Shown in pieces: positions 34,205 to 62,243 of a DNA stretch of 64,000 bases. The position numbers and the translations under genes were made by a program. The notes under the pieces were generated by a model that was not told the origin of the DNA, ran no database searches, and was given only the letters and a program-made list of their open reading frames with translations. Each line of letters opens with the position of its first letter. The first letter of the stretch is position 1. The DNA is from Grus americana (Eukaryota): assembly GCF_028858705.1 (NCBI RefSeq), contig NC_072878.1, positions 4,115,923 through 4,179,922 of the forward strand, given 5' to 3'.

Positions 34205-34343
34205 GCACTTCGAGGTGCCTGAGGACCCCAAGGCCCTGGGGCGCCTCTTCAGTGTCCCCGACTTCGTGGGCGACGCCTGCAAGGCCCTGGCCTCCCGCGT
34301 GCGTGGCGCTGTGGCGGCCGTCACCTTCGATGACTTCCACAAG
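34205..34343 (+). CDS. MVP: MVP coding exon 11 ([46 protein letters not shown])
   Basis: Acceptor cccatag|G. Donor AAG|gtctcc. Confidence 0.9.
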
Positions 34344-35378: not shown

Positions 35379-35495
35379 GCACGAGGCAGAGCGGCTGGCG
35401 CAGGAGGCCCGGGGACGTCTGGAGCGGCAGCGACTCCTGGACCAGGCGGAGGCCGAGCGGGCGCGCAGAGCGCTGCTGGAGCTCGAGGCCCTCAG
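35379..35495 (+). CDS. MVP: MVP coding exon 13 ([39 protein letters not shown])
   Basis: Acceptor gtccccag|G. Donor CTC AG|gtcggc. Confidence 0.85.
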
Positions 35496-35654
35496 GTCGG
35501 CCATCTTCCCAGCATGCACTGCTGGGGGGCGTCCGCTGGGGGCTTCTGCCAGCCTGGGGGCAGCGGGGAGCCCTGCCCTTCCCGGGGGGGGGATCGTGGG
35601 GCAGGCTGGGTGGAGCCCGAGGTGGGCGTGGCCGTGACTCTGCTTCCCCCGCAG

Positions 35655-39289: not shown

Positions 39290-39475
39290 TAGAGTAAGTT
39301 GGGCCAGAAGGGACCTTCAGAGATCATCTAGTCCAACCCACCCCACCCCCCCCAACCGTCATGGGTAGGGACACCCTCCACTAGCCCAGGTTGCCCAAAG
39401 CCCCATCTGACCTGGCCTTCAACACTTCCGGGGATGGGGCATCCACAACTCCTGTGAGGAGAGAATCCCTTCTCC
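39290..39475 (-). mobile_element. CR1 3' fragment
   Basis: gagaatcatagagtaagttgggccagaagggaccttcagagatcatctagtccaacc...gggacaccctccactagcccaggttgcccaaagccccatctgacctggccttcaacacttccggggatggggcatccacaac. Confidence 0.6.
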
Positions 39476-39676
39476 TTCCTTTCTTATGGTGGCAAAACAC
39501 AAGTCTGGCTTTGCCCATCAGGTTGTCTCAACCTAACTGCAAAGAAGCATCTTTGGAATAAAACACATACCTCTGGCTTGAGCATGTTCTTAGAAGATAA
39601 CAGAATGGCTGATCTTTTTCCCCCCAGATTTTCTTTTAGCAAGTGTATCTACAGCTACACAAAGCCTGTGGTAAAG

Positions 39677-39919
39677 CTACTGCTTTACTACAGTAATGTA
39701 AACATACTTCAAAGAAGAATACACTAATGGTTTCGGAGATGACTTTCTAGCAGTAAAACCAGAGCAACAGAGCATATCAACCTCTTCTGAGAGCTCAGGC
39801 TGTACATTTATCCTTGAAGGACATCTTCTGGCATACAAGACAGGATTGACGGCCTTCATTTGTTCTTCTCCTAATAAAGATAGTCCAACAATTCGAAATG
39901 AGGTATGAAATGGAACCAC
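39677..39919 (-). pseudogene. RABGGTB: RABGGTB-derived terminal exon (acceptor ttcttctcccag|GTG...). About 75% identical to human C-terminus, but with compensating indels and loss of the ancestral stop (about 40-aa extension)
   Basis: Minus-strand translation [50 protein letters not shown]... versus human [45 protein letters not shown]. The stretch CMPEDVLQ is readable only in the +1 frame, consistent with two small indels. Conserved splice acceptor present. Confidence 0.55.
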
Positions 39920-41414
39920 CTGGGAGAAGAACGTGTTTGTTAACCTCCAAAAGCTATCCAGCTTTTGTTTGTACAGGATGGAGCTTTTGTTTCTTAGCAA
40001 GAGAACTGCAAACTCCATGGCTGAAGACGATGCTGCAACTGAATAAACTTTTGTCTTGCCTGCAAGCACGCATCAGAGCAATTTCTGTGGCATGCATTTA
40101 CGGCACTATGATTTACTCAGAGGTGTTTGTAGATTGTTTCCTGCTAAGACCTAAGGCAATTTTCAACTCTGCATTCAGCAGGAACCACTCATGTATTCCC
40201 AATAACACATAATGGCATCAAACAGAAGGAGCAAAGATGAGAAAGACTGAAAAGGTAAATTTGATAACCTCCAAATGCCTCTTCCATAAATGCCCCGTTT
40301 GCTGTTCAGGAACAGTATAATCCTCTTCAGCAGTCTCCGAATATAGAGCTTTGCTGTAAAATCTTAAGAGGGGAGTAGCAACCTACTGTGCTATAAAACT
40401 GAAAGAAGAAAATACAAGGAAGGAAAAAAACCCAAAAAGAGACAGCAGCAGTTACCAGGTATCCAAGCACTCCTTCACTGCATTAACTTTCCCCTGAAGC
40501 TTCTATCATCATACAACTGCAAGAGGCTATTTAAAGTGTCATGACACGAGCACCCTGGCAGTGGAGTTAATGAGTCACTCTACAAAATCCTATCCACAAT
40601 TACTGATTTGGTCTGGTGCAGAGTACATCCTGTTTATCTGATAAGATCCACAATTTCCACTTACAAGGGTCCTATAATGCAGACAACCAAGCAGAATTAT
40701 CGTATTATAACCACACGTAGGAGCCTCAACGACTTATCGCAGCCTAGAAGGTCAAAACTACACCAGCATAACAACAAATCCTACTCCTCGGTGGTTTGGC
40801 AAACACATTACAGGTATGGTGAAAGCACACAGATATAAAAGAAGCAAGTAAGCATATAAGAGCCCATATTGTATTGTTTTTCACCATGGTTTGCATGAGA
40901 ATCAAGTTCTGGTAACCCATATGAAACCCATGTAAAATCCAATAAAACCCATGCTGCTAGTGGCAGTGGTGATCGACCCGGGAGAACCTTGGAGCTCTTA
41001 CTCCTACAACGCAGGGAGGAGGGAATGAAATAAATACTCTTCAATGACAAGGAAAAATACATTCAAGTCATCCTCGACAACAGGCGACAAAACACTCAAG
41101 CCCAGGTTTCACGCTGAACAACAAGAGCGATTAACCACAGAGTTCCTCGGCACTGCTGCCTTTTCCAGCCCGCGGATAGTTTCCTCGCTCACTGACAAAG
41201 CGCGCGTTACAACTCCAGCCATCCGTGTGTTGACTGCGCATCAAAGCGAACAACTCCTTTTCAGCTGCTGTGCAGTCAGATATACATCCAAAAAACCTCA
41301 ACCAGCGTAACCTGCAGACAGCCGTGTAGTTGGGAACTGCCCTGGAGAGCCGCAGAGCCTCAGAAATACTGGGGGAAATGCTCAGAAATACAGTGGAAAG
41401 AAACTGGAGTTGCC

Positions 41415-41501
41415 TGGGTCTCAGAATAATTCTAGAGCTAAAGTGGTGACAGACATCAGCTTTACATCAGGTAATACATGCCAACACTCATCACTGACCC
41501 A
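41415..41501 (-). ncRNA. SNORD45: SNORD45-like C/D box snoRNA, variant B, copy 1
   Basis: Minus-strand RNA tgggtcagtgatgagtgttggcatgtattacCTGAtgtaaagcTGATGTctgtcaccactttagctctagaattattCTGAgaccca. C box GUGAUGA, D' CUGA, C' UGAUGU, D CUGA, 6-bp terminal stem tgggtc/gaccca. Guide upstream of D is complementary to 18S rRNA GGUAAUUCUAGAGCUAA. Guide upstream of D' is complementary to (G)UAAUACAUGCC(A). Confidence 0.85.
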
Positions 41502-42542
41502 AGAAGGCAACCTCCGCCTGCCCTACCCAAGGCTTTCAAACGCAGCACAGTTTCTGCCCAAAGCAGGATGCTACTTCATTTGTAACACCGCTGACAGATT
41601 TCTTCCTCGAGATGGGACGAGAGATACATCACGCGAACAACCAAGCCGCTGTTGGCAAGCACTGGAGCCTTTTTCTCCGTATTGTTTTTCACCGCCGTTT
41701 GCGTGAGAAGGAAAATCAAAGACAGAACAGGTGGAGATAGCCTTGGTGAAAAAATAAGATTCAGGCAACGTTCTCTTCTTGGTTTGGCGTCCCTTTTTTC
41801 TTTTCTTTTCCCCCTCTTCAGGATAAGAGTACAGGCCAAATAAATAAAGAAAACTTAGACCCGTCTTCCGAGCATTTCAAGCTATTACAGGAAAAAAGCA
41901 ATTTGAGGAAGACAACACAAGAACTGGCTACTACAACCCTTCTTTTCTACAAGACACTAAAGCGTAGACACGCTACACGCGTATAATTCATACGTTCTGC
42001 ATAACTATATCCTTTCTATAGACACCACACAAGTATGTGACTATATAGCATAATATTGACTGTCATACACATCTCTGTGTATAAGTATCTACGAAATCCA
42101 AACCTTTCCTCCTCCCCTGGCCAGGCACATCTTTCTCCTCAACATACCCCCCGGCTTGAGGAGAATTCATGAAATCCACAAGCAGTTATCGACAAGATCC
42201 CGCTACGACCTGTACCTAAGCAATGTTTCGGGGAGACTGCTACAAAATTCACAAAAAACGCAGACAAAAAGCCACCAGTAAAGGAACATTGAAAGCACAA
42301 TGTTCCCAAATCTGACAATTCTCTTTAGGAGATGAATCCTAAAGTTGGGCCCATCAGATTATTGTTGAATAAGGTACCAAAACCGTTCTTGCCATCCATA
42401 TCCAACTGCACCCAGTTCCTAAGTCTGCAGTCCTCAAGATCATGAATTGCAAGCGGTTGTTCCCACAGCGACCCTGTCACATTTACCCGGACGTCCTGGG
42501 GGTCGACACAAGATGAGGATCACGACCTGTGCCGGCACTTAC

Positions 42543-42700
42543 CGCACCACGTGCGCTGGCGTGATCTGATGAACGCCAGAATTCCGTCTGCCGTCAGTCG
42601 GTGCAGCCGTCGTCCCACGGGATCCCTCGCTGTCTGCCCCCAGGAAACGCCGCTCGTCCTCAAGTACTCCCGACAGACTGCGCCCCGAAGCAGGGCATGA
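42543..42700 (-). pseudogene. RABGGTB: RABGGTB exon-3-like pseudo-exon inside array unit (copies also at about 45468-45625, 48386-48543, 51319-51476)
   Basis: Minus-strand translation CREYLRTSGVSWGQTARDPVGRRLHRLTADGILAFIRSRQRTWCG|gtaagt, versus human [45 protein letters not shown]. Conserved EYLR, SG, WG, LHR and ILAFI. About 45% identity in one frame, followed by a consensus GTAAGT donor. Confidence 0.6.
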
Positions 42701-43533
42701 TTTTTACTTCTGAATCGGGTAAGCACAGCATCGAAACAGAGCAAGGAAAATGCCTCAGTTAAATGTTTTCCATCCCTTTAACCACTCAACACGTACTAAC
42801 CGCTCATATGTATCACACGCACCATGCGTGCCTGTACGTATGCCTGCGTACGTACGGGCGCCTGTGCCGGTAGGTACCTTACAGCACTACGTTTCCTTCC
42901 CCCCCATTTTCTAGTCCAGGAGCATCAAGCTCAATGTCAAGTTGCACGCATGCTACTAGTAAAGCGCCAGTTCACTTCAGATCATCGGGCATTATCTTAG
43001 CAGCCAAACTAACACTCACATCGCCACCGCGACCAGTCTCAAAAGTAACGGGACTAACGTTCCCTGAAACTTACTGTCGAGTGCCAAAGCTGCCACGACC
43101 TGAGGTGGCACTACAAAGGGAATTCTCATATGCATCTCTCCTCTTGTCTGCCTACGTCACCCGCGAGCATCACCTTCTTGATGCAGTACTTACAACCTGC
43201 ATGTTTTCAGCACAGCAACAAGCAGCACAGGCAACAGTGCCTCCCCCTCTTTCGGGGACACGAAAAGTAACTGCAGCTTTCCCCACCCCCCCCTCCAGAC
43301 ACAAGCAGTTATTGACATTTTCCACCTCCTGGAACTGGAATCCAGTTGCTGTTGGGGGCGATGTCTGGTAACCCACGCCGATAAAACCCGTGCTGCTAGC
43401 TGCCGTGGGGATCGACCCGAGCAACCAAGCAGCAGTGCTGCGCCCAGATTCGGCACGTTCTCCCGTCACGGGAGCCACGTGCAAATACAGCTGCACCCTC
43501 CTTGCCGATAAAGGGGCAACAAGAAGTTCGCTT

Positions 43534-43620
43534 CCCAGGTCTCAGAGTAATTCTAGAGCTAAGCTGATAGTCTTCAGGTTTATGCTCAGCTAATACATGC
43601 CAACACCCATCACCGACCCA
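43534..43620 (-). ncRNA. SNORD45: SNORD45-like C/D box snoRNA, variant A, copy 1
   Basis: Minus-strand RNA tgggtcggtgatgggtgttggcatgtattagCTGAgcataaacCTGAAGActatcagcttagctctagaattactCTGAgacctggg. C box GUGAUGG, D' CUGA, degenerate C', D CUGA, terminal stem gggtc/gacc. D'-guide ggcatgtattag pairs with 18S CUAAUACAUGCC. D-guide gcttagctctagaattac pairs with 18S GUAAUUCUAGAGCUAA. Confidence 0.8.
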
Positions 43621-43784
43621 GGGGAACGAACAGAGCGGCTCCCCTTTGCACGTCACGGGGGACTGCTGGGCAAGAGAGGAGCAGCTGGGGAGCACGCACC
43701 AAACCAACCCCACCTCTCCACAAGGCACTGAGGGTTGTCGCTCTTAATAAAAGCACGGCGGTGCTTTCGTAAGGCCTTACTCAC

Positions 43785-43886
43785 TCGGTCACCTTTCCTT
43801 GTCCCAGGCGAAACTCCGGGAGAAACACGCGGCCCGTACGGCAACGTGCTCGGGGCATCAGGGTTTCTTATCGCATCCTTTCGCAG
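43785..43886 (-). pseudogene. RABGGTB: RABGGTB exon-2-like pseudo-exon inside array unit (copies also at about 46710-46811, 49628-49729, 52561-52662)
   Basis: Minus-strand translation ...RKDAIRNPDAPSTLPYGPRVSPGVSPGTRKGDR|gtgagt. About 85% identical to the ancestral copy at 53862-53969 and about 40% to human [35 protein letters not shown]. The splice acceptor is lost in the array copies. Confidence 0.6.
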
Positions 43887-44340
43887 CGTCGCGTTGCACC
43901 GCACCGGGAGAACCTTGGGGCTCTTACTCCTACAACGCAGGGAGGAGGGAATGAAATAAATACTCTTCAATGACAAGGAAAAATACATTCAAGTCATCCT
44001 CGACAACAGGCGACAAAACACTCAAGCCCAGGTTTCACGCTGAACAACAAGAGCGATTAACCACAGAGTTCCTCGGCACTGCTGCCTTTTCCAGCCCGCG
44101 GATAGTTTCCTCGCTCACTGACAAAGCGCGCGTTACAACTCCAGCCATCCGTGTGTTGACTGCGCATCAAAGCGAACAACTCCTTTTCAGCTGCTGTGCA
44201 GTCAGATATACATCCAAAAAACCTCAACCAGCGTAACCTGCAGACAGCCGTGTAGTTGGGAACTGCCCTGGAGAGCTGCAGAGCCTCAGAAATACTGGGG
44301 GAAATGCTCAGAAATACAGTGGAAAGAAACTGGAGTTGCC

Positions 44341-44427
44341 TGGGTCTCAGAATAATTCTAGAGCTAAAGTGGTGACAGACATCAGCTTTACATCAGGTAA
44401 TACATGCCAACACTCATCACTGACCCA
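44341..44427 (-). ncRNA. SNORD45: SNORD45-like snoRNA, variant B, copy 2
   Basis: Identical to copy 1, at +2926. Confidence 0.85.
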
Positions 44428-46458
44428 AGAAGGCAACCTCCGCCTGCCCTACCCAGGCTTTCAAACGCAGCACAGTTTCTGCCCAAAGCAGGATGCTACT
44501 TCATTTGTAACACCGCTAACAGATTTCTTCCTCGAGATGGGACGAGAGATACATCACGCGAACAACCAAGCCGCTGTTGGCAAGCACTGGAGCCTTTTTC
44601 TCCGTATTGTTTTTCACCGCCGTTTGCGTGAGAAGGAAAATCAAAGACAGAACAGGTGGAGATAGCCTTGGTGAAAAAATAAGATTCAGGCAACGTTCTC
44701 TTCTTGGTTTGGCGTCCCTTTTTTCTTTTCTTTTCCCCCTCTTCAGGATAAGAGTACAGGCCAAATAAATAAAGAAAACTTAGACCCGTCTTCCGAGCAT
44801 TTCAAGCTATTACAGGAAAAAAGCAATTTGAGGAAGACAACACAAGAACTGGCTACTACAACCCTTCTTTTCTACAAGACACTAAAGCGTAGACACGCTA
44901 CACGCGTATAATTCATACGTTCTGCATAACTATATCCTTTCTATAGACACCACACAAGTATGTGACTATATAGCATAATATCGACTGTCATACACATCTC
45001 TGTGTATAAGTATCTATGAAATCCAAACCTTTCCTCCTCCCCTGGCCAGGCACATCTTTCTCCTCAACATACCCCCCGGCTTGAGGAGAATTCATGAAAT
45101 CCACAAGCAGTTATCGACAAGATCCCGCTACGACCTGTACCTAAGCAATGTTTCGGGGAGACTGCTACAAAATTCACAAAAAACGCAGACAAAAAGCCAC
45201 CAGTAAAGGAACATTGAAAGCACAATGTTCCCAAATCTGACAATTCTCTTTAGGAGATGAATCCTAAAGTTGGGCCCATCAGATTATTGTTGAATAAGGT
45301 ACCAAAACCGTTCTTGCCATCCATATCCAACTGCACCCAGTTCCTAAGTCTGCAGTCCTCAAGATCATGAATTGCAAGCGGTTGTTCCCACAGCGACCCT
45401 GTCACATTTACCCGGACGTGCTGGGGGTCGACACAAGATGAGGATCACGACCTGTGCCGGCACTTACCGCACCACGTGCGCTGGCGTGATCTGATGAACG
45501 CCAGAATTCCGTCTGCCGTCAGTCGGTGCAGCCGTCGTCCCGCGGGATCCCTCGCTGTCTGCCCCCAGGAAACGCCGCTCGTCCTCAAGTACTCCCGACA
45601 GACTGCGCCCCGAAGCAGGGCATGATTTTTACTTCTGAATCGGGTAAGCACAGCATCGAAACAGAGCAAGGAAAATGCCTCAGTTAAATGTTTTCCATCC
45701 CTTTAACCACTCAACACGTACTAACCGCTCATATGTATCACACGCACCATGCGTGCCTGTACGTATGCCTGCGTACGTACGGGCGCCTGTGCCGGTAGGT
45801 ACCTTACAGCACTACGTTTCCTTCCCCCCCATTTTCTAGTCCAGGAGCATCAAGCTCAATGTCAAGTTGCACGCATGCTACTAGTAAAGCGCCAGTTCAC
45901 TTCAGATCATCGGGCATTATCTTAGCAGCCAAACTAACACTCACATCGCCACCGCGACCAGTCTCAAAAGTAACGGGACTAACGTTCCCTGAAACTTACT
46001 GTCGAGTGCCAAAGCTGCCACGACCTGAGGTGGCACTACAAAGGGAATTCTCATATGCATCTCTCCTCTTGTCTGCCTACGTCACCCGCGAGCATCACCT
46101 TCTTGATGCAGTACTTACAACCTGCATGTTTTCAGCACAGCAACAAGCAGCACAGGCAACAGTGCCTCCCCCTCTTTCGGGGACACGAAAAGTAACTGCA
46201 GCTTTCCCCACCCCCCCCTCCAGACACAAGCAGTTATTGACATTTTCCACCTCCTGGAACTGGAATCCAGTTGCTGTTGGGGGCGATGTCTGGTAACCCA
46301 CGCCGATAAAACCCGTGCTGCTAGCTGCCGTGGGGATCGACCCGAGCAACCAAGCAGCAGTGCTGCGCCCAGATTCGGCACGTTCTCCCGTCACGGGAGC
46401 CACGTGCAAATACAGCTGCACCCTCCTTGCCGATAAAGGGGCAACAAGAAGTTCGCTT

Positions 46459-46545
46459 CCCAGGTCTCAGAGTAATTCTAGAGCTAAGCTGATAGTCTTC
46501 AGGTTTATGCTCAGCTAATACATGCCAACACCCATCACCGACCCA
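46459..46545 (-). ncRNA. SNORD45: SNORD45-like snoRNA, variant A, copy 2
   Basis: Identical to variant A copy 1. Confidence 0.8.
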
Positions 46546-47263
46546 GGGGAACGAACAGAGCGGCTCCCCTTTGCACGTCACGGGGGACTGCTGGGCAAGA
46601 GAGGAGCAGCTGGGGAGCACGCACCAAACCAACCCCACCTCTCCACAAGGCACTGAGGGTTGTCGCTCTTAATAAAAGCACGGCGGTGCTTTCGTAAGGC
46701 CTTACTCACTCGGTCACCTTTCCGTGTCCCGGGCGAAACTCCGGGAGAAACACGCGGCCCGTACGGCAACGTGCTCGGGGCATCAGGGTTTCTTATCGCA
46801 TCCTTTCGCAGCGTCGCGTTGCACCGCACCGGGAGAACCTTGGAGCTCTTACTCCTACAACGCAGGGAGGAGGGAATGAAATAAATACTCTTCAATGACA
46901 AGGAAAAATACATTCAAGTCATCCTCGACAACAGGCGACAAAACACTCAAGCCCAGGTTTCACGCTGAACAACAAGAGCGATTAACCAGAGTTCCTCGGC
47001 ACTGCTGCCTTTTCCAGCCCGCGGATAGTTTCCTCGCTCACTGACAAAGCGCGCGTTACAACTCCAGCCATCCGTGTGTTGACTGCGCATCAAAGCGAAC
47101 AACTCCTTTTCAGCTGCTGTGCAGTCAGATATACATCCAAAAAACCTCAACCAGCGTAACCTGCAGACAGCCGTGTAGTTGGGAACTGCCCTGGAGAGCC
47201 GCAGAGCCTCAGAAATACTGGGGGAAATGCTCAGAAATACAGTGGAAAGAAACTGGAGTTGCC

Positions 47264-47350
47264 TGGGTCTCAGAATAATTCTAGAGCTAAAGTGGTGACA
47301 GACATCAGCTTTACATCAGGTAATACATGCCAACACTCATCACTGACCCA
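47264..47350 (-). ncRNA. SNORD45: SNORD45-like snoRNA, variant B, copy 3
   Basis: Identical to copy 1. Confidence 0.85.
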
Positions 47351-49376
47351 AGAAGGCAACCTCCGCCTGCCCTACCCAGGCTTTCAAACGCAGCACAGTT
47401 TCTGCCCAAAGCAGGATGCTACTTCATTTGTAACACCGCTAACAGATTTCTTCCTCGAGATGGGACGAGAGATACATCACGCGAACAACCAAGCCGCTGT
47501 TGGCAAGCACTGGAGCCTTTTTCTCCGTATTGTTTTTCACCGCCGTTTGCGTGAGAAGGAAAATCAAAGACAGAACAGGTGGAGATAGCCTTGGTGAAAA
47601 AATAAGATTCAGGCAACGTTCTCTTCTTGGTTTGGCGTCCCTTTTTTCTTTTCTTTTCCCCCTCTTCAGGATAAGAGTACAGGCCAAATAAATAAAGAAA
47701 ACTTAGACCCGTCTTCCAAGCATTTCAAGCTATTACAGGAAAAAAGCAATTTGAGGAAGACAACACAAGAACTGGCTACTACAACCCTTCTTTTCTACAA
47801 GACACTAAAGCGTAGACACGCTACACGCGTATAATTCATACGTTCTGCATAACTATATCCTTTCTATAGACACAAGTATGTGACTATATAGCATAATATC
47901 GACTGTCATACACATCTCTGTGTATAAGTATCTATGAAATCCAAACCTTTCCTCCTCCCCTGGCCAGGCACATCTTTCTCCTCAACATACCCCCCGGCTT
48001 GAGGAGAATTCATGAAATCCACAAGCAGTTATCGACAAGATCCCGCTACGACCTGTACCTAAGCAATGTTTCGGGGAGACTGCTACAAAATTCACAAAAA
48101 ACGCAGACAAAAAGCCACCAGTAAAGGAACATTGAAAGCACAATGTTCCCAAATCTGACAATTCTCTTTAGGAGATGAATCCTAAAGTTGGGCCCATCAG
48201 ATTATTGTTGAATAAGGTACCAAAACCGTTCTTGCCATCCATATCCAACTGCACCCAGTTCCTAAGTCTGCAGCCCTCAAGATCATGAATTGCAAGCGGT
48301 TGTTCCCACAGCGACCCTGTCACATTTACCCGGACGTGCTGGGGGTCGACACAAGATGAGGATCACGACCTGTGCCGGCACTTACCGCACCACGTGCGCT
48401 GGCGTGATCTGATGAACGCCAGAATTCCGTCTGCCGTCAGTCGGTGCAGCCGTCGTCCCACGGGATCCCTCGCTGTCTGCCCCCAGGAAACGCCGCTCGT
48501 CCTCAAGTACTCCCGACAGACTGCGCCCCGAAGCAGGGCATGATTTTTACTTCTGAATCGGGTAAGCACAGCATCGAAACAGAGCAAGGAAAATGCCTCA
48601 GTTAAATGTTTTCCATCCCTTTAACCACTCAACACGTACTAACCGCTCATATGTATCACACGCACCATGCGTGCCTGTACGTATGCCTGCGTACGTACGG
48701 GCGCCTGTGCCGGTAGGTACCTTACAGCACTACGTTTCCTTCCCCCCCATTTTCTAGTCCAGGAGCATCAAGCTCAATGTCAAGTTGCACGCATGCTACT
48801 AGTAAAGCGCCAGTTCACTTCAGATCATCGGGCATTATCTTAGCAGCCAAACTAACACTCACATCGCCACCGCGACCAGTCTCAAAAGTAACGGGACTAA
48901 CGTTCCCTGAAACTTACTGTCGAGTGCCAAAGCTGCCACGACCTGAGGTGGCACTACAAAGGGAATTCTCATATGCATCTCTCCTCTTGTCTGCCTACGT
49001 CACCCGCGAGCATCACCTTCTTGATGCAGTACTTACAACCTGCATGTTTTCAGCACAGCAACAAGCAGCACAGGCAACAGTGCCTCCCCCTCTTTCGGGG
49101 ACACGAAAAGTAACTGCAGCTTTCCCCACCCCCCCCTCCAGACACAAGCAGTTATTGACATTTTCCACCTCCTGGAACTGGAATCCAGTTGCTGTTGGGG
49201 GCGATGTCTGGTAACCCACGCCGATAAAACCCGTGCTGCTAGCTGCCGTGGGGATCGACCCGAGCAACCAAGCAGCAGTGCTGCGCCCAGATTCGGCACG
49301 TTCTCCCGTCACGGGAGCCACGTGCAAATACAGCTGCACCCTCCTTGCCGATAAAGGGGCAACAAGAAGTTCGCTT

Positions 49377-49463
49377 CCCAGGTCTCAGAGTAATTCTAGA
49401 GCTAAGCTGATAGTCTTCAGGTTTATGCTCAGCTAATACATGCCAACACCCATCACCGACCCA
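49377..49463 (-). ncRNA. SNORD45: SNORD45-like snoRNA, variant A, copy 3
   Basis: Identical to variant A copy 1. Confidence 0.8.
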
Positions 49464-50191
49464 GGGGAACGAACAGAGCGGCTCCCCTTTGCACGTCACG
49501 GGGGACTGCTGGGCAAGAGAGGAGCAGCTGGGGAGCACGCACCAAACCAACCCCACCTCTCCACAAGGCACTGAGGGTTGTCGCTCTTAATAAAAGCACG
49601 GCGGTGCTTTCGTAAGGCCTTACTCACTCGGTCACCTTTCCTTGTCCCAGGCGAAACTCCGGGAGAAACACGCGGCCCGTACGGCAACGTGCTCGGGGCA
49701 TCAGGGTTTCTTATCGCATCCTTTCGCAGCGTCGCGTTGCACCGCACCGGGAGAACCTTGGGGCTCTTACTCCTACAACGCAGGGAGGAGGGAATGAAAT
49801 AAATACTCTTCAATGACAAGGAAAAATACATTCAAGTCATCCTCGACAACAGGCGACAAAACACTCAAGCCCAGGTTTCACGCTGAACAACAAGAGCGAT
49901 TAACCACAGAGTTCCTCGGCACTGCTGCCTTTTCCAGCCCGCGGATAGTTTCCTCGCTCACTGACAAAGCGCGCGTTACAACTCCAGCCATCCGTGTGTT
50001 GACTGCGCATCAAAGCGAACAACTCCTTTTCAGCTGCTGTGCAGTCAGATATACATCCAAAAAACCTCAACCAGCGTAACCTGCAGACAGCCGTGTAGTT
50101 GGGAACTGCCCTGGAGAGCTGCAGAGCCGCGGACCCTCAGAAATACTGGGGGAAATGCTCAGAAATACAGTGGAAAGAAACTGGAGTTGCC

Positions 50192-50278
50192 TGGGTCTCA
50201 GAATAATTCTAGAGCTAAAGTGGTGACAGACATCAGCTTTACATCAGGTAATACATGCCAACACTCATCACTGACCCA
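50192..50278 (-). ncRNA. SNORD45: SNORD45-like snoRNA, variant B, copy 4
   Basis: Identical to copy 1. Confidence 0.85.
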
Positions 50279-52309
50279 AGAAGGCAACCTCCGCCTGCCC
50301 TACCCAGGCTTTCAAACGCAGCACAGTTTCTGCCCAAAGCAGGATGCTACTTCATTTGTAACACCGCTAACAGATTTCTTCCTCGAGATGGGACGAGAGA
50401 TACATCACGCGAACAACCAAGCCGCTGTTGGCAAGCACTGGAGCCTTTTTCTCCGTATTGTTTTTCACCGCCGTTTGCGTGAGAAGGAAAATCAAAGACA
50501 GAACAGGTGGAGATAGCCTTGGTGAAAAAATAAGATTCAGGCAACGTTCTCTTCTTGGTTTGGCGTCCCTTTTTTCTTTTCTTTTCCCCCTCTTCAGGAT
50601 AAGAGTACAGGCCAAATAAATAAAGAAAACTTAGACCCGTCTTCCGAGCATTTCAAGCTATTACAGGAAAAAAGCAATTTGAGGAAGACAACACAAGAAC
50701 TGGCTACTACAACCCTTCTTTTCTACAAGACACTAAAGCGTAGACACGCTACACGCGTATAATTCATACGTTCTGCATAACTATATCCTTTCTATAGACA
50801 CCACACAAGTATGTGACTATATAGCATAATATCGACTGTCATACACATCTCTGTGTATAAGTATCTATGAAATCCAAACCTTTCCTCCTCCCCTGGCCAG
50901 GCACATCTTTCTCCTCAACATACCCCCCCGCTTGAGGAGAATTCATGAAATCCACAAGCAGTTATCGACAAGATCCCGCTACGACCTGTACCTAAGCAAT
51001 GTTTCGGGGAGACTGCTACAAAATTCACAAAAAACGCAGACAAAAAGCCACCAGTAAAGGAACATTGAAAGCACAATGTTCCCAAATCTGACAATTCTCT
51101 TCAGGAGATGAATCCTAAAGTTGGGCCCATCAGATTATTGTTGAATAAGGTACCAAAACCGTTCTTGCCATCCATATCCAACTGCACCCAGTTCCTAAGT
51201 CTGCAGTCCTCAAGATCATGAATTGCAAGCGGTTGTTCCCACAGCGACCCTGTCACATTTACCCGGACGTGCTGGGGGTCGACACAAGATGAGGATCACG
51301 ACCTGTGCCGGCACTTACCGCACCACGTGCGCTGGCGTGATCTGATGAACGCCAGAATTCCGTCTGCCGTCAGTCGGTGCAGCCGTCGTCCCACGGGATC
51401 CCTCGCTGTCTGCCCCCAGGAAACGCCGCTCGTCCTCAAGTACTCCCGACAGACTGCGCCCCGAAGCAGGGCATGATTTTTACTTCTGAATCGGGTAAGC
51501 ACAGCATCGAAACAGAGCAAGGAAAATGCCTCAGTTAAATGTTTTCCATCCCTTTAACCACTCAACACGTACTAACCGCTCATATGTATCACACGCACCA
51601 TGCGTGCCTGTACGTATGCCTGCGTACGTACGGGCGCCTGTGCCGGTAGGTACCTTACAGCACTACGTTTCCTTCCCCCCCATTTTCTAGTCCAGGAGCA
51701 TCAAGCTCAATGTCAAGTTGCACGCATGCTACTAGTAAAGCGCCAGTTCACTTCAGATCATCGGGCATTATCTTAGCAGCCAAACTAACACTCACATCGC
51801 CACCGCGACCAGTCTCAAAAGTAACGGGACTAACGTTCCCTGAAACTTACTGTCGAGTGCCAAAGCTGCCACGACCTGAGGTGGCACTACAAAGGGAATT
51901 CTCATATGCATCTCTCCTCTTGTCTGCCTACGTCACCCGCGAGCATCACCTTCTTGATGCAGTACTTACAACCTGCATGTTTTCAGCACAGCAACAAGCA
52001 GCACAGGCAACAGTGCCTCCCCCTCTTTCGGGGACACGAAAAGTAACTGCAGCTTTCCCCACCCCCCCCTCCAGACACAAGCAGTTATTGACATTTTCCA
52101 CCTCCTGGAACTGGAATCCAGTTGCTGTTGGGGGCGATGTCTGGTAACCCACGCCGATAAAACCCGTGCTGCTAGCTGCCGTGGGGATCGACCCGAGCAA
52201 CCAAGCAGCAGTGCTGCGCCCAGATTCGGCACGTTCTCCCGTCACGGGAGCCACGTGCAAATACAGCTGCACCCTCCTTGCCGATAAAGGGGCAACAAGA
52301 AGTTCGCTT

Positions 52310-52396
52310 CCCAGGTCTCAGAGTAATTCTAGAGCTAAGCTGATAGTCTTCAGGTTTATGCTCAGCTAATACATGCCAACACCCATCACCGACCCA
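52310..52396 (-). ncRNA. SNORD45: SNORD45-like snoRNA, variant A, copy 4
   Basis: Identical to variant A copy 1. Confidence 0.8.
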
Positions 52397-53116
52397 GGGG
52401 AACGAACAGAGCGGCTCCCCTTTGCACGTCACGGGGGACTGCTGGGCAAGAGAGGAGCAGCTGGGGAGCACGCACCAAACCAACCCCACCTCTCCACAAG
52501 GCACTGAGGGTTGTCGCTCTTAATAAAAGCACGGCGGTGCTTTCGTAAGGCCTTACTCACTCGGTCACCTTTCCGTGTCCCGGGCGAAACTCCGGGAGAA
52601 ACACGCGGCCCGTACGGCAACGTGCTCGGGGCATCAGGGTTTCTTATCGCATCCTTTCGCAGCGTCGCGTTGCACCGCACCGGGAGAACCTTGGAGCTCT
52701 TACTCCTACAACGCAGGGAGGAGGGAATGAAATAAATACTCTTCAATGACAAGGAAAAATACATTCAAGTCATCCTCGACAACAGGCGACAAAACACTCA
52801 AGCCCAGGTTTCACGCTGAACAACAAGAGCGATTAACCACACAGTTCCTCGGCACTGCTGCCTTTTCCAGCCCGCGGATAGTTTCCTCGCTCACTGACAA
52901 AGCACGCGTTACAACTCCAGCCATCCGTGTGTTGACTGCGCATCAAAGCGAACAACTCCTTTTCAGCTGCTGTGCAGTCAGATATACATCCAAAAAACCT
53001 CAACCAGCGTAACCTGCAGACAGCCGTGTAGTTGGGAACTGCCCTGGAGAGCCGCGGACCCTCAGAAATACTGGGGGAAATGCTCAGAAATACAGTGGAA
53101 AGAAACTGGAGTTGCC

Positions 53117-53203
53117 TGGGTCTCAGAATAATTCTAGAGCTAAAGTGGTGACAGACATCAGCTTTACATCAGGTAATACATGCCAACACTCATCACTGAC
53201 CCA
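53117..53203 (-). ncRNA. SNORD45: SNORD45-like snoRNA, variant B, copy 5
   Basis: Identical to copy 1. Confidence 0.85.
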
Positions 53204-53861
53204 AGAAGGCAACCTCCGCCTGCCCTACCCAAGGCTTTCAAATGCAGCACAGTTTCTGCCCAAAGCAGGATGCTACTTCATTTGTAACACCGCTAACAGA
53301 TTTCTTCCTCGAGATGGGACGAGAGATACATCACGCGAACAACCAAGCCGCTGTTGGCAAGCACTGGAGCCTTTTTCTCCGTATTGTTTTTCACCGCCGT
53401 TTGCGTGAGAAGGAAAATCAAAGACAGAACAGGTGGAGATAGCCTTGGTGAAAAAATAAGATTCAGGCAACGTTCTCTTCTTGGTTTGGCGTCCCTTTTT
53501 TCTTTTCTTTTCCCCCTCTTCAGGATAAGAGTACAGGCCAAATAAATAAAGAAAACTTAGACCCGTCTTCCGAGCATTTCAAGTTATTACAGGAAAAAAG
53601 CAATTTGAGGAAGACAACACAAGAACTGGCTACTACAACCCTTCTTTTCTTTTGTACAGGACACTAAAGCATAGACACATTATGCAGGTATAATTGATAC
53701 ATCCTGCATAACTATATCGTTTATATAAACATTATGCAAGTATGTAATTATATATTATAATAATTAAAGCTAAAAACTTATGTTTAATTACTAAGTGATT
53801 GCATTTTATAATATACAGTAATAGCTATTGGGCCGTATAAGTACCTGAAAAAGCCACTCAC

Positions 53862-53969
53862 TCGGTCACCCTTCTTTGTCCCAGGCGAAGTTTCTGGAGA
53901 AACACGCCGCCAGTATGGCAACGTGCTCGGGGCATCAGGGTTTCTTATCGCCTCCTTCCGCGGTGTCAC
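53862..53969 (-). pseudogene. RABGGTB: Ancestral (single-copy) RABGGTB exon-2-like exon with intact acceptor ttttcacag|GTG and donor CGA|gtgagt
   Basis: VTPRKEAIRNPDAPSTLPYWRRVSPETSPGTKKGDR, 36 codons in frame, adjacent to the CpG island. Only about 40% identical to human RABGGTB residues 3-38, so coding constraint appears relaxed. Confidence 0.55.
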
Positions 53970-53999
53970 CTGTGAAAAACACCATCAAAACGTCAGTTT

Positions 54000-54850
54000 T
54001 GGCGTCAGCCGTGGGGGTTGCCGTGCCCGGGGTTCATTAGGGGAGCTCAGCAGCCGTCACTGCCCGTTCGGACTCGGAGCTTTCTCCGCCCGTCCTGACC
54101 CTGGGGCACATTTCCTTCCCGGCCCGGCTGACCGCCCCCCCCTCCGCCCAGGGAAGTGCGCGAAGGGATGCGCCCAGCGAGGCTGAGGTGAGCCACCATC
54201 TCCCCGCGGCCGCCCCGACCGTCGGGAGACCGTAACCCGCCCAGGGACCCGCGATCCCCCCACCGCCGCCAGCCTCGACCTAGGCCAGCTCAGCCGCACT
54301 GTCGCGTCCGTCACACCGCTATATCTGGAGCGACCGGGCCCGCAGCCCCCGCGCCGCCCCCAGCTGCCGAGGCACCGGCCCCGAGCTGGGCCCTTCCCCC
54401 ACCATGCGGCAGCAGCACCCGCCCCCGCCGCCGCCCGCGCCGGAAAGAGCGTCCCGCCGCGGGGCGGAGCTAGATGGGTCTCCCGGCAGGACCCCGCTGT
54501 AGCTGCCTCGCCGTTCGCCTGACCCGCGCTGGCGGACTGAGGCGGCGGCGCCTGGGGCGGGCAGGACGCGGCGGTCAGGCGTTCGCCCCGCGGTGGGAAG
54601 GTCCCGCCCGGAAGCGGGGTGTCCATGGCGACCGGCGCGGCTCTGAGGAGAGGTCGTTCCCGGTGCTCTGCCCCGGGGCGGGGGAGGGCAGCTGCTCTTC
54701 CCTGCGGAAATAAACTCCTTTCCTCCCTCTTTAAAACCGATTCCTCTGAGCGCGCTGTGAATTGCCAACGCTGGACTCTGGCAGCCGCTAGCCGTGTCGG
54801 GCGGGAACACCATTTGAAGACTATACAATAAAAAAAATATGTATAATGCT
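54000..54850. promoter_or_regulatory. CpG island, likely bidirectional promoter (minus-strand RABGGTB-derived snoRNA host transcript; plus-strand spliced transcript)
   Basis: Extremely CpG/GC-rich with no long coding frame that makes sense. The RABGGTB-like exon 2 lies 40 bp to its left on the minus strand. A plus-strand splice donor (aca|gtaagt) sits at its right edge (54873). Confidence 0.55.
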
Positions 54851-55745: not shown

Positions 55746-58042
55746 AAATCTCACAGAAATTCTTCCTTCTCAGCTGTTCTTGCTGCAAATGTAGTCAAGT
55801 GTATGTACTGATGGAAAGGTTTAGACTAGATTTGAAATAAACGTGATGCTGTAAGACATTCTTAGTGGAAAAACCACACACTTTCACTTGAATCACCCTA
55901 ATTGAAGGTTTACTTGCTTAGGGAGTAAGCGGTGAAAGGGCGCCATGCTCTCTGAAGCTGATGATAGTGTGTTACTGCTGGATAGCATCTCAAGACACTC
56001 TTGCAGACAACAGCAACACAGGCCTCAGTGCTGCTGAGCTGCAAGGGCTGTTCAGCTGCGGTGGGCTGTAGTGTAGTGAGAACTGCAGTATGGCTGTAAC
56101 ATACTTCAGACACTGGACAACTTCCCTGAGCTACAATTTAAATGATGTGACAAGCAAAGTGAACAAAAGAACCACACCTCTCTGCTTATAAACTTGTATT
56201 TTTTTATTAGAATGCAGCAATGCCTGTCAGAAATAGTATTTTGATCCTCTAATTTTACAGTGAAAAAACATAGTGTTGCGAGGTTCTCATTTGTTGCCCC
56301 TTATTGTATTTGTTATAATTCAAAATAAGGCAGTTTCCTACAGGTTCTTTCACATGGGATCAGTTAAAATGGAAATGTTTAAAATTGAATTATCGTATTT
56401 ATTTTTTCCCCACTGTGATGGAAACACATATTTCAGCTGTATTACTCAAGTGCTGTACTTAACATTCACCCATAAAGAAGAAGTCTTACTTAAGGTACAA
56501 GAAAACAAGTATTTTCTTCATAAACATTACAGGTTTCTTTGAGGCACAGAGATGAATACATTGAATGACAATTTCTGTCTTTGTTGAATTCAGGTGAATA
56601 AGATGGTGAAGTCACTGAAAAGAAGGCCAATGAAAACAAAAACTAGTTTTTGTTCATACTGACTCATGGATGCATATAAAATAGAGATAATGTGCAATCA
56701 GTAATGCAGCCACCGTTTGAAAAATAACACCTGTGTAGTAATTTAAGAGAATGTATGTTTTTGACAGGTCCAGAAGTCAGCACGTATTCACTTTCCATTT
56801 TTTTAAAAGTTGCAAGTTTTCTAAAGGCCAGTGTTATCATATTTATTTTAGCAAGTGGTGACCTAAAAACCATGTGCTGCAAAATGGTATTGCTGAGGAA
56901 GCGGAACAGCTTATTTAAATTTCCCTGAGATTTATTAATTTGATATCCACCCAACTCCAGTGCTAAAACAGTGGGTGCAAATGTGTCACTATAACCAATA
57001 CAGAAACACCTAAAATCCAATTTGTTGTTACATGCTGAATGCCTTCACAGACACACACACAAATATCTGAGTTTTATTCACTTTTTTGATCATATAAATT
57101 TTAAATTTTTCTCCCACCAAAAGTCAAAGGTTTCAGTGAAAGAGATTGAGTGGGGAAAGATGCCAAACTATCACTTTGGAATTCAGAAATGTTTAGAAAA
57201 CACCAAGTTTGTTAGTCAGAAAGAATGAAGTGAGAGAATGGATGGGGAGTACAGAATAGTGCTTAATCATGTACACAGTAAAAAGATTTGAAGGAAAAGA
57301 GTTTTTTCCACGTCTTTCTAATTGAGAAACACACTGAAAATCCTCTTCTATGAGAGCACAGAACACTACAGCAGCAGCCAGATATGCTTGATACATATCC
57401 TTAAGCCTTATATTTGCCAACATGTTCACGAGCTATGATCATCCTTTGAATCTGAGCAGTTCCCTCATAAATCTGAAAAGAAGAATTGCAATAATGTTAA
57501 CTGATAATTTTTTAAAACATTTTAGCAGGTCTTTCTACGCTTGTAAACCTTCACAGCACTTATCTAGTGTGGATTAGGATGTGTAGAAAGAAAAAACTGA
57601 AAAAAATTCTAGTGCAACTCGAGTAACTACAGTGGGCTAAATGCAATAAATCCTTATACGAGATACTGAGAGACAGGCTTGTTCTCTCAGATGCTTTTAT
57701 CAAAACTCAGTAAGGTTCTCATGAAATTAAGAGTGAGGAAGGATGGGGAAAATGGGGGAGAAAATACATATTTTAGGTTTTACAAAGAAGGTTATAAAAC
57801 AGTGGGTTGAGGGGAAGAAGTGACCTGTGCTGAAAGTGTCGTATTTTCTTTGACTAGCCTTTCAAGGCTGTAGCAAGTGTACCCTTTCATGCAGTTATCC
57901 AGTTATTCCCACTGCTCCTTAACTCTTTCTCTCTTGAACACAGTATTTTATTTTTTTTTTAAACTATGTATTCTTGCATTTTCCTCTAGAAACAGTCTGC
58001 ATCTTCCCTCTGGTTTTTTTTGGCTTGCTGGCAAAGTCAGAT

Positions 58043-58586
58043 TGTATTGGGTCTGGCTGAGATGGAGTTAAGTCTCCCCACAGCAGCCCTCATGGTGCTG
58101 TGCTGTGTATTCGTAGCTAGCAAAGTGTTGATAACACACCAGTGTTTTGGCTACGACTGAGCAGTGCCAGCACACATCAAGGCCGTCTCTCCAACATTTC
58201 TTTCCCCCCCTGCCCAGCAGCAGGCTGGGGGTAGGCAAGATCTTGGGAGGGGACACAGCCAGGACAGCTGACCCAAACTGACCAAAGGGATATTCCATTT
58301 ACAATGTTTGTCTTCCGCAGTAAGGGGTACGCTTACTGAAGCCCTACTTCCCAGGAAGTGGCTGGACATCGCCTGCTGATGGGAAGTAGAGAATAATCTT
58401 TTGCTTTTTGCTTTGCTTCTGCGCGCGGCTTTTTGCTTTAGCTACATTAAACTGCCTTTATCTTGACCCACGAGTTTGGGGTTGGTTTTCCATCTTAGTT
58501 TCTCTCCTCCCTGCCTTGCTGAGGAGGGGAGTGATAGAGTGGCTTGGTGGACACTTGGCTTCCAGCCAAGGGTAAACCACCACACA
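58043..58586 (+). mobile_element. Solo LTR-like fragment (3' part related to the LTR family at 21200-21400)
   Basis: ...ctgcctttatcttgacccacgagtttggggttggttttccatcttagtttctctcctccctgccttgctgaggaggggagtgatagagtggcttggtggacacttggcttccagccaagggtaaaccaccaca parallels gttttgcccatgacggtaactggtg...cttatctcgacccacaagccttacgttatattttctctcccctgtccagttgag. Confidence 0.5.
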
Positions 58587-61153
58587 GAGATACACAACAA
58601 AACACATATGTAGGTCTAATGCATAAAGAAGGCCACATGGGTACAGTGCAACGTCACTTGAGGGCAGCCTAGCTTAGGGGTTGAAGTGTTTCAGCTCCCA
58701 GTTCTGTCAAAACTTACTTTGGCAAATTGCTCAAAGGCATGAAAATTCACTTCTCTGTAGTCATAAAATAGGGATAATCTTCCCAAGAACCTTACAAAGC
58801 TTTACAAAAATAAAGATGGTATAACCTGTGGTCACATTCAGTTTTTGGTTCAGAGGAAATGGTTCATCCTCAAAGTGAACTCTCTGACTGATGCTGCTTG
58901 CCCCATCTGGATCCAGATCATCAAGCAGATTTTGCTTTGTCAATACTAGGTGCCCTCTGGAGTAAACTGAACTGGAAGCTCTCCCCTCTGCATACACCCA
59001 GTACCCTCCAAACCCTAACGAAGACATAATGGTCCAAGCCCACAGCTGGACGTGCAGTGGGGATGTTCAGTCCAGACAGGCCTGCTGTGAACCTAGCCCA
59101 CCCAAACTGCGTACAGTAGATGCAGGGGCCTCCGCAGCCCCTCCTCCCATCTGCTGCACTGAATTACTTGCTGATGAAGACAGAAACGAAACTCAAGTGT
59201 AAAGACATCAAAACCCACAATCTTCTTAAGTAAGCACGAGAATGGTTTTGGTTTCTAAGCCAATGGGGTGGTTTCAAGAATCATTGACAATTGAAGAAAA
59301 GAAGTTTTCTGAATTTGAGAAACTAAGCTAGAATTTCTATCCTATTAGCCTAGATTTGTAGCCAGACACAAACCCAGAGCAAAGCATGGACATGTAAGAA
59401 TGTTACCAGTAAACCCAGTAGCAGAATTGTGTCATAATGAGAAGTATCAAATATGTGGAAGAAAAGAACAGGTGGAAAACAAAGTTTCTGTGCATGAAAG
59501 GCGGCCAAAAACATATACCATCTGGAATTGGGCAGTAATATAGTGAAGTATAATCAAGAGACATGGATAAAATAATTGTAAAGAGAAAGGCCTTTCCTGT
59601 ATTCTTTTGGATATGAAGGGGAGCAGAAAAACACCAAAAGTGTATTACTAAATCTGATTAATTTGAACAATAAAGAAAAAAAAAGTCTACCTAGGCATTC
59701 ATTCGTGATAGATCAGTGTAATGGAAAATCTAAATAACTGGGATCCTGTAAAATCAGTCTCAACTTTCAAATAAACTTCTAACCCTCCCACCCTTCTTCT
59801 CTAGAAACATATGGAACCTGACAGGAAAAAAGCCCAATCATAAGAAAGTTCAATTACTCATTTGTTTCCTCACTTGCAGGAGTGCAATTAGTACTAAGAA
59901 CCTTTAGATTCCAAAACCACAGTTTTCTATCCTTAAGAAAAAAATTCTTGGCTAGTGAGAATACACCTGACTTTAAAATTAAAGGTAAGAGAAATTTCAA
60001 CTATCTAGAATCTTAAGAATGGTATCTGTTAGTATAACTAACATTACAGATCATTGTCCACATGCACTTCTTGATATCATTGATTTTGATGTGTTTTGTC
60101 TAGTCATTATTAATGTCAGAAAGAGGTGAAAAGATAAAAAATTACTGGTTTTCCTGAATGTAATGAAATCATTCTTACTGAAGAAAGAACTAGCATAGTA
60201 TAGCTAAGAGAAGAGTTATGACATGGAATAATTTCTTGGTAATAATAATACTGCAGAAAAAGATCTGGGGATTATGGGTGACTATGGGCTAAACATGAGT
60301 AAATATGAGCATGTTTTGTTGTGGTGGGGTTTTTTTAAAGGCTAATCATTTCAGGCTGTGCCATGCTTCTGTTAATGCAACATATGCAAGATAACTAATC
60401 CATAATACTCAGTGGTGGTGACCTCAACTGAAGTAATCTGCCGAGCTTATGATACCAAAGTTTCAAACAGAAGGTTTAGAGCACAGCGAGAAGTGATGAA
60501 GAGACTGGAAAACAAAAAGGAAAACCAACCTAAAAAAACTGCCACCATGGCTTATGAGGAGAGAGGAAGCAGCTGCTTTAGTGTTCTCTTCTAGACTAAA
60601 CTAAGAGGAAGGTGGGAAGCACATAAAATGTAGTCATTACCAATTGTTTGTTCTGTATACCCACTTTGGATATGACAAGTAAAAGGATGTAATTAGCAAC
60701 AACTGTTCTTTACACTGCATACCAGGCTGAGGGGAACATGAAGATGGAGGCAGGCACCAGTCCAGGGTACAAACAGAGGGTCAGAGGATTTCCATCACCA
60801 AAGCAAGCATTAGTATTTTGATCAGTGTTTTCTACAGTGGGTTTTTCTGAGTTCAAAAGCTTCAAAATGAAGGGTCCAAGAATTCAAAGAGTTACCACTT
60901 CAGAAAAACAAAATCACACCACTAAATTTATTTCTCTTGTGTAGGTTAAGTTGTTGATTTAATACAAAGAAAGAGTTTTGTATGCAAGAATTTGCCTGAT
61001 TTGAATGCCCTTTCTTTAAATAGAAGAAATACTGCTCTCATCCTCAAAACTTTTTTTATGTGCGTATATCATGATTTCAAATAAGTAGCCATTAGGTTCT
61101 TTTATATAAAAGGTATGCATTAATATAAAGATCACATTCTCTCTTTTACTTAC

Positions 61154-62090: not shown

Positions 62091-62243
<153 letters not shown>

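Follow-up and report, generated by a model that had tools for sequence, protein, structure and literature searches.

What is left of RABGGTB, the gene for the beta subunit of Rab geranylgeranyltransferase (RabGGTase), beside ACADM in the whooping crane (Grus americana), and for what could its remains have been kept? We examined a stretch of 64,000 nucleotides from this genome (RefSeq assembly GCF_028858705.1, contig NC_072878.1, positions 4,115,923 to 4,179,922 of the forward strand), referred to below as the window. All coordinates are window positions, and both the RABGGTB-derived gene and ACADM lie on the minus strand. The RABGGTB copy in the window is probably a former protein-coding host gene that now acts only as host for SNORD45, a small nucleolar RNA (snoRNA) of the box C/D class. 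For comparison we used the intact RABGGTB loci of a guan (Penelope pileata), a passerine (Phainopepla nitens), a parrot (Amazona guildingii) and a rail. These four loci gave an avian exon map in which exons 2-5 encode residues 1-37, 38-104, 104-139 and 139-156, and exons 6-9 encode residues 157-194, 194-236, 235-287 and 286-331.

Whether the enzyme could still be made here depends on the exons, of which the following remnants and their surroundings were recognised.

53862..53969, minus strand: exon 2 remnant; acceptor, donor, 108-nt length and open frame kept, sequence unconstrained.
51263..51485, minus strand, with copies at 48330-48552, 45412-45634 and 42487-42709: exon 3 remnant, found by tblastn and alignments.
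40978..41003, minus strand: last fragment of exon 5, comprising its acceptor and 26 nt, ahead of a deletion junction.
39920..40829, minus strand: remnant of the 3' part of intron 8, aligning to the parrot locus at 21180-22089.
39660..39919, minus strand: terminal exon, made up of an exon-9 remnant (39919-39790) and then a 3' untranslated region (3'UTR) remnant, with ~88-92% nucleotide identity to other birds.

The match to RABGGTB is not a chance one, since tblastn E-values go down to 1e-10 and the nucleotide alignments of the remnants to the orthologous bird loci give E=1e-64 to 1e-146. The remnant peptides are 37% (exon 2), 53% (exon 3) and 64% (exon 9) identical to human RABGGTB, for a protein that is otherwise at least 95% identical across orders of birds. 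Exon 2 has the same 108 nt as in other birds, yet its residue identity is only 14/36; its acceptor (...TTTTTCACAG/G) and donor (CGA/GTGAGT) are intact. Exon 3 holds residues up to ~100 in frameshifted form, with four indels (+1, +3, -2, -1), and has kept its donor (GTAAAT) and lost its ancestral acceptor (TTAG to TTCG). The terminal exon retains its acceptor, CTCCCAG/G at 39920/39919. Deletions of 2 nt and 1 nt shift its frame, and a third, of ~20 nt, takes out the stop, the open reading frame (ORF) extending to 39677. A conserved AGTAAA is present in the 3'UTR remnant at 39689-39684. The initial annotation had described an unusually low peptide identity, an exon 2 with intact splice sites, and a terminal exon with a kept acceptor, indels and a lost stop, and was correct in each of these observations.

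Exons 4, 6, 7 and 8 were absent from the whole window at both the protein level (tblastn at word size 2) and the nucleotide level (permissive blastn with parrot and rail exons). Of exon 5, the initial 26 nt are left, and the permissive search recovered no more than its first 26-41 nt. The exons for residues about 86 to 290 had been reported as not found in the ~1 kb between 39925 and 40930. This stands for exons 4 and 6-8 and for most of exon 5, and needs correction at its lower end, where residues to ~100 are present, though frameshifted. The junction after 41003-40978 marks a deletion running from the remainder of exon 5 into intron 8, of which the last ~900 bp are left. An 11-bp tandem repeat, AACCCATATAA, is present in 3.6 copies at 40914-40952, ~25 bp downstream of the deletion junction near 40978, and may be a footprint of the deletion.

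A Pfam scan of the concatenated remnant peptides gave no match at E<=1; intact bird RABGGTB matches the prenyltransferase toroid PF00432 over residues 18-315 with 343 bits. In the alignment numbering, D238 and C240 belong to exon 8, which is deleted, and H290 is retained in exon 9; these three residues are the zinc ligands of the rat enzyme (structure 1DCE). Because exons 4 and 6-8 are absent, exons 3 and 9 are frameshifted and the stop is lost, coding capacity is gone: judged from its sequence, the locus cannot encode the RabGGTase beta subunit, the toroid being incomplete and the frame interrupted. A processed retropseudogene was also considered and is ruled out by the retained introns, promoter and ACADM flank.

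Within this degraded gene the snoRNAs are preserved.

53117..53201, minus strand, with identical copies at 50192-50276, 47264-47348, 44341-44425 and 41415-41499: SNORD45 A-type (intron-3 paralog).
52312..52394, minus strand, with identical copies at 49379-49461, 46461-46543 and 43536-43618: SNORD45 B-type (intron-2 paralog).

All nine match Rfam RF00279, the A-type with 64.2 bits and the B-type with 61.3 bits against a gathering threshold of 42, and an Rfam scan of 39.0-55.5 kb at E<=0.1 found no RNA other than these nine copies. Boxes C, D', C' and D and the terminal stem are present; box C of the B-type reads GUGAUGG (final A to G), and the A-type has a locus-specific variant in the internal segment AAAGCUGAUGUCUGUCACCAC. 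The guides GGCAUGUAUUA and UUAGCUCUAGAAUUA are identical to those of SNORD45 in other birds. Both match 18S ribosomal RNA as antisense elements, their pairing register having been checked by hand on an 18S segment. In the chicken, SNORD45 (GGgCD5) is located in RABGGTB introns and guides modification of 18S A158 and U171 (PMC2653536).

The snoRNA bodies are better preserved than their flanks. The B-type body shows 5 unique changes in 69 positions, against 10 of 18 in its 5' flank, and the A-type body differs from that of the guan at 10 of 84 positions, against 21/40 and 24/40 in its flanks. Together, the snoRNA bodies are 7-12% changed and their flanks 52-60%; host exons 2 and 3 show 25-37% crane-specific change. 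The state of SNORD45 in the comparison birds is varied. Intron 2 of guan RABGGTB contains two near-identical B-type copies, 10256-10338 and 11646-11728, with a spacing of 1390 bp; intron segments with SNORD45 are thus duplicated locally in a working host gene too. The parrot intron-3 copy (~12330-12500) no longer has box C and escapes Rfam detection, the parrot intron-2 copy (10248-10330) has changes in both guides and scores 50.7 bits, and the passerine has a single detectable copy. Copies of SNORD45 are being lost in other birds, and the nine intact copies of the crane stand out.

The contrast between snoRNAs and exons was quantified by counting crane-specific substitutions at sites where parrot and passerine agree. 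Ratios give AT-to-GC against GC-to-AT changes.

RABGGTB intron 8: 22%.
RABGGTB intron 2: 28%, ratio 94:22.
Exon 3: 25%, ratio 36:3.
Exon 2: 37%, ratio 25:7.
Exon 9: 8%, ratio 5:3.

Exons 2 and 3 have evolved at or above the rate of introns (15-28%) and by this measure are without constraint; their substitutions are strongly biased towards GC. In its 5' part (54403-41004) the gene has ~51% GC here vs 34-38% in guan, passerine and parrot, and ACADM, 2.6 kb upstream, has 38%. The GC rise in the 5' part came through roughly strand-symmetric AT-to-GC changes, the crane-specific substitutions being strand-symmetric as well (A>G 55 vs T>C 62), and exon 9 has no GC bias. The rise looks like GC-biased gene conversion acting very locally, about a CpG-island promoter and a recombining array. 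Strand asymmetry was considered as a sign of continued transcription and rejected, as the skew of G over C and T over A on the coding strand is found equally in intact bird genes.

The exons and snoRNAs are arranged in a tandem array.

52706..53762, minus strand: head partial repeat unit, derived from intron 3, 96.2% identical to the array units, with one A-type SNORD45.
41004..52705, minus strand: four full tandem units, 52705-49773, 49772-46855, 46854-43930 and 43929-41004.
52561..52705, minus strand, with copies at 49628-49772, 46710-46854 and 43785-43929: chimeric exon of 145 nt, defined by alignments.

The full units are 2918-2933 bp long and differ pairwise by 3-10 mismatches. Two exons and two introns make up each 2.9-kb unit, and every intron contains a single snoRNA. 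The chimeric exon consists of the intron-4 acceptor (TTGTAG/GAG), the first 26 nt of exon 5, and exon 2 without its first few bases, and ends at the donor GTGAGT. It had been claimed that the array copies lost their acceptors; the exon-2 acceptor is indeed gone from them, and in its place they have gained the intron-4/exon-5 acceptor, which the RefSeq gene model uses. From the RefSeq junctions and the retained sites we infer a layout of 12 exons and nine consecutive GT-AG introns, each with one SNORD45. If splicing uses the canonical exon-2 donor, the ORF runs into a stop in the chimeric exon, whose second codon is TAA (GAG TAA).

The array also records some of its history. Identity to the array copies is 87% for the first exon 2 and 96% for the head unit. 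Exon 2 has 23 derived changes common to the first copy and the array copies, with a further 6 found in the first copy alone and 8 in the array alone; the 23 common changes imply that most of the decay predates the exon-5/exon-2 duplication, or that gene conversion spread it. The array was amplified or homogenised recently, given the near-identity of its units.

The upstream end of the gene retains the features of a promoter.

54001..54850, minus strand: CpG-island promoter of the RABGGTB-derived gene, aligning to the parrot promoter.
54440..54470, minus strand: conserved block from the parrot alignment, a putative core promoter.
54470-54460, minus strand: GC box GCTCCGCCCCG, conserved with parrot.
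54449-54440, minus strand: motif CTCTTTCCGG, resembling a terminal oligopyrimidine (TOP) or ETS motif, conserved with parrot.
54403..54813, minus strand: exon 1 of the RefSeq coding sequence, matching residues 1-137 of the RefSeq protein at 100%.

Between 54800 and 54001 the GC content is 66-79% and the CpG observed/expected ratio 0.73-1.04, in agreement with the CpG-island promoter that had been placed at 54.0-54.85 kb. The motif CTCTTTCCGG is kept in the parrot and reads as a TOP-like pyrimidine motif but also as an ETS-type motif. The ancestral start ATG is found at 54405-54403, followed by the donor GTGGGG, and this ATG/GT is conserved with the parrot.

When the decayed peptides were searched against 5.8 billion proteins, the sole match was XP_054660931.1 ("uncharacterized protein LOC129196991", Grus americana, 228 aa), which is 100% identical to the locus and is carried on a 4,385,072-bp record. 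Its residues 1-137 map to 54813-54403, ending at the ancestral ATG, and the block that follows residue 137 covers exon 2 and continues as far as an alternative donor at 53845/53844. Residues 179-227 correspond to 52707-52561, the chimeric exon, with 100% identity, and the terminal K and stop are consistent with a new acceptor, TTCAG/AAGTAA, at 51486/51485, upstream of exon 3. The NCBI gene model thus uses the inferred junctions, including the acceptor of the exon-5/exon-2 fusion. The pattern first described for this locus, a decaying ORF with promoter, splice sites and snoRNAs retained, is upheld by the 7-12% change in the snoRNA bodies against 25-37% in exons 2 and 3 and by the GT-AG introns.

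These observations are consistent with a gene that now serves its introns. RNA polymerase II would transcribe the locus from the CpG island and the transcript would then be spliced. The excised introns would be trimmed to SNORD45 small nucleolar ribonucleoproteins, leading to 2'-O-methylation of the 18S ribosomal RNA (rRNA) at A159 and U172 (human numbering). The spliced RNA, with its early stop, would be discarded, and nonsense-mediated decay would be expected. An old tandem duplication joined the exon-5 acceptor to exon 2, giving a repeat unit able to multiply, and the tandem amplification would raise snoRNA dosage or be neutral. The enzyme would presumably come from another RABGGTB copy, probably on a chromosome of ~36 Mb as in the crowned crane.

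Several points weigh against a present role as snoRNA host. The snoRNAs are 409-1495 nt from the downstream acceptors, which is far from the usual optimum for snoRNAs; similarly distant snoRNA placement is found in intact bird genes. Since the array units are near-identical, the nine snoRNAs do not each count as separate evidence of selection. Exon 9 has diverged by 7-8%, far below exons 2 and 3, and a single time of constraint loss does not explain this low value; our best guess for the contrast is that GC-biased conversion acted locally, close to the CpG island and inside the array. After exon 9 no canonical AATAAA was found, only the conserved AGTAAA. RefSeq annotates the locus as protein-coding, and its model may be partly ab initio. 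Lastly, the intact crane RABGGTB found here is that of Balearica regulorum rather than of the whooping crane.

Where the enzyme would come from, and which copy of the gene this is, depends on the surroundings.

57407..63374, minus strand: ACADM, last five coding exons (human residues 201-420), intact and constrained by tblastn.
39360..39662, minus strand: synteny break, with the last ancestral downstream flank at 39662-39535 and then a CR1 fragment at 39450-39360.
25988..35640, plus strand: exons of MVP (major vault protein), identified from ORFs and the Pfam domains Vault_2, Vault and MVP_shoulder, with GC of 57-67%.

ACADM had been reported upstream on the same strand, and its five minus-strand exons at 63374-57407 are in place, in the ACADM-then-RABGGTB order of the parrot and passerine loci. 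They are 75-91% identical to human ACADM by tblastn, with window-specific changes at 3 of 220 residues, and an ACADM exon shows 4.5% crane-specific divergence vs 15-21% in the ACADM introns. From these rates, ACADM here is under clear purifying selection and looks functional. Collinearity with other birds extends from ACADM through ~130 bp past the 3'UTR (39662-39535) and breaks ~130-300 bp past the 3' end. Beyond the break lies MVP, a non-ancestral neighbour convergent with the remnant; in guan and parrot the downstream gene is MSH4, and tblastx of the window against the MSH4-bearing flanks of two birds returned CR1 repeats only. In the passerine, the gene annotated first downstream of RABGGTB codes for a 189-aa protein with an acetyltransferase domain (23465-27601) and is not MSH4; the RABGGTB-MSH4 interval varies among birds. 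Composition changes in a step at ~39 kb, from 57-67% GC on the MVP side to 38-41% in ACADM and the spacer, so that an AT-rich block of chromosome 8 type abuts a GC-rich block of microchromosome type, with the CR1 fragment (39450-39360) at the join. The step is either a real evolutionary breakpoint or an assembly join worth checking.

In other birds RABGGTB is carried on records of ~29-86 Mb (chromosome-level assemblies, among the matches listed). The 4,385,072-bp record of XP_054660931.1 has the size of a crane microchromosome: in the Siberian crane chromosome 30 measures 4.36 Mb and chromosome 9 36.46 Mb, and four crane genomes are reported to be highly syntenic (PMC12992608). In the crowned crane Balearica regulorum, RABGGTB isoform X2 is carried on a 36,293,307-bp record and shows full conservation of exons 2 and 4-9, and exons 4-9 of the rail gene are intact and intron-containing. 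The initial annotation had taken the window copy to be at the ortholog position. ACADM upstream agrees with this; MVP rather than MSH4 downstream, and a 4.39-Mb record against ~29-86 Mb elsewhere, do not, and the term ortholog position is doubtful for this copy. On present sequence comparisons it probably derives from the ACADM-RABGGTB block by relocation or duplication, and a functional RABGGTB likely resides elsewhere in the whooping crane, as had been predicted.

The same facts invite a simpler account, in which the ACADM-RABGGTB block was copied to a microchromosome as a plain pseudogene, its snoRNAs and array being functionless and the intact ACADM-RABGGTB-MSH4 locus remaining on the ~36-Mb chromosome. 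The small record, the MVP neighbour, the synteny break directly past the 3' end, the intact Balearica gene on its 36.3-Mb record and the high synteny among crane genomes (PMC12992608) are all as this account would have them. However, purifying selection on ACADM would not be expected if this copy were redundant and of the same age as the RABGGTB decay, the CpG island, splice sites and snoRNAs stayed preserved as the exons decayed, and there is an annotated gene model at the locus. We consider a plain pseudogene unlikely. A dead duplicate of the whole block is less likely because ACADM here looks functional, and we infer that a rearrangement which duplicated RABGGTB at the breakpoint is likelier than a simple dead duplicate of the whole block.

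It is also conceivable, though improbable, that the window holds the sole ancestral locus, translocated and decayed in place, with the enzyme supplied by an intronless retrocopy elsewhere. ACADM is functional-looking and collinear with the remnant as in other birds, and retrogene replacement is a known route (PMC3548309, PMC5803294). The Balearica gene does not have the form of a retrocopy, being intron-containing, with exon-skipping isoforms, on a large chromosome. Two protein searches gave no crane-specific divergent RABGGTB cluster. Exact look-up of ten guessed consensus RABGGTB sequences returned stork and penguin proteins only, and in a homology search with rail RABGGTB no Grus-named cluster was seen.

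Mis-assembly of the array and internal deletion from a normal RABGGTB is very improbable. Near-identical 2.9-kb tandem units are prone to assembler error, and the window and the RefSeq model probably derive from one assembly and are hence not independent. Mis-joined reads, however, cannot yield 25-37% lineage-specific, GC-biased substitutions, a lost acceptor, or indels in exons 2, 3 and 9, and the units differ by 3-10 substitutions, with the head unit 96% and the first exon 2 87% identical to them. There is similarly little chance that the locus encodes a new protein, either the 228-aa RefSeq product or a shorter ORF begun at the ancestral ATG. In favour of this are the protein-coding annotation in RefSeq and a frame that remains open from an upstream ATG through exon 2 and the chimeric exon; against it, the GC-rich 5' leader supplies 137 of the 228 residues, the product has no Pfam match and only a self-match among 5.8 billion proteins, the exons are substituted at or above the intron rate, and the canonical exon-2 donor leads to the early stop in the chimeric exon. 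That the whooping crane, or Grus, has no intact RABGGTB and geranylgeranylates its Rab proteins through another beta subunit or an unrecognisable replacement is hardly credible, a split of jobs after duplicative translocation, with coding at the old site and snoRNA hosting here, being far likelier than total loss.

Other elements were noticed elsewhere in the window. A perfect (100%) inverted repeat of 2056 nt (12286-14341 and 21507-23562, arms 7165 nt apart) is made up of CR1 long interspersed element sequence with long endonuclease and reverse transcriptase ORFs. Arms this alike point to an inverted duplication of very recent date, to gene conversion or to an artefact of assembly. A retroviral pol fragment at 1301-2926 (minus strand), with RNase H, integrase zinc-binding and integrase core domains in long open frames, is probably a young endogenous retrovirus. 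Similar Pro/Gly/Ser-rich ORFs on opposite strands, 8724-9338 and 20053-21068 (...GISAPAPGAP...SALTLVSAEFLTSSH...), suggest a further repeated element or duplicated segment downstream of MVP.

Reports on RABGGTB or SNORD45 in birds or cranes are sparse in the literature we searched: the link appeared only in the chicken snoRNA catalogue, and the whooping-crane paper does not mention RABGGTB. If the locus is transcribed as the snoRNA-host reading supposes, it would be a dated natural case of a coding host becoming a snoRNA-only host and a tandem snoRNA array at an early stage, and RefSeq LOC129196991 would have to be re-annotated as a snoRNA host gene. Loss of SNORD45 from the coding copy, if true, would amount to subfunctionalisation between a protein and an intronic RNA. 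The steps can still be read at the locus: a second copy or new location, loss of the catalytic exons, GC-biased drift, retention of promoter, splice sites and snoRNAs, a new junction exon and an array.

The crane locus can be set beside four kinds of known system. The first is intact vertebrate RABGGTB, with which it shares the promoter, the ACADM neighbour, two SNORD45 paralogs and the 18S guides, and from which it differs in being frameshifted, in lacking the catalytic exons and the prenyltransferase domain, in carrying nine snoRNAs rather than one to three, and in having MVP rather than MSH4 downstream. The second is the class of non-coding snoRNA host genes such as UHG/SNHG1 and GAS5. Like these, it would be a spliced RNA polymerase II gene, with unconstrained exons and conserved intronic snoRNAs, one per intron, a short ORF with an early stop, and, at the presumed start site, a motif that may be of the TOP type. 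Unlike these, it is a recognisably decayed RABGGTB (homologous exons 2, 3, 5' and 9) and carries one snoRNA family and not several.

The third comparison is with tandem snoRNA arrays. As in SNORD115/116, SNORD113/114 and rat Bsr, the repeat unit consists of one or more exons and introns with a C/D snoRNA (PMC11028025). The crane units are homogenised to >99.6%, as unequal crossing-over or conversion would give in tandem snoRNA arrays. SNORD115/116 comprise tens to hundreds of orphan units, whereas the crane array has ~4.4 units with a canonical rRNA guide and grew from a former protein-coding host. Birds are not known to have imprinting, unlike loci of the SNORD115/116 type. Few exon-intron-snoRNA arrays are known, all of them mammalian, and understudied genomes may hold more; the review makes no mention of a bird array of a canonical rRNA guide (PMC11028025).

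Finally, the locus resembles the long non-coding RNA (lncRNA) fossils of coding genes described by Hezroni et al. 2017 (PMC5577775), in which the promoter and part of the exon-intron structure of a lost gene are kept. It differs from them in having an identifiable likely reason for retention, the snoRNA payload; neither that lncRNA-fossil paper (PMC5577775) nor the orphan-retrogene paper mentions snoRNAs, and host genes are likewise absent from the former. The mechanism proposed here is the one by which intronic box C/D snoRNAs are ordinarily made in non-coding host genes. Such hosts are common and their origin is rarely visible; what sets the crane locus apart is a visible origin together with an incipient tandem array.

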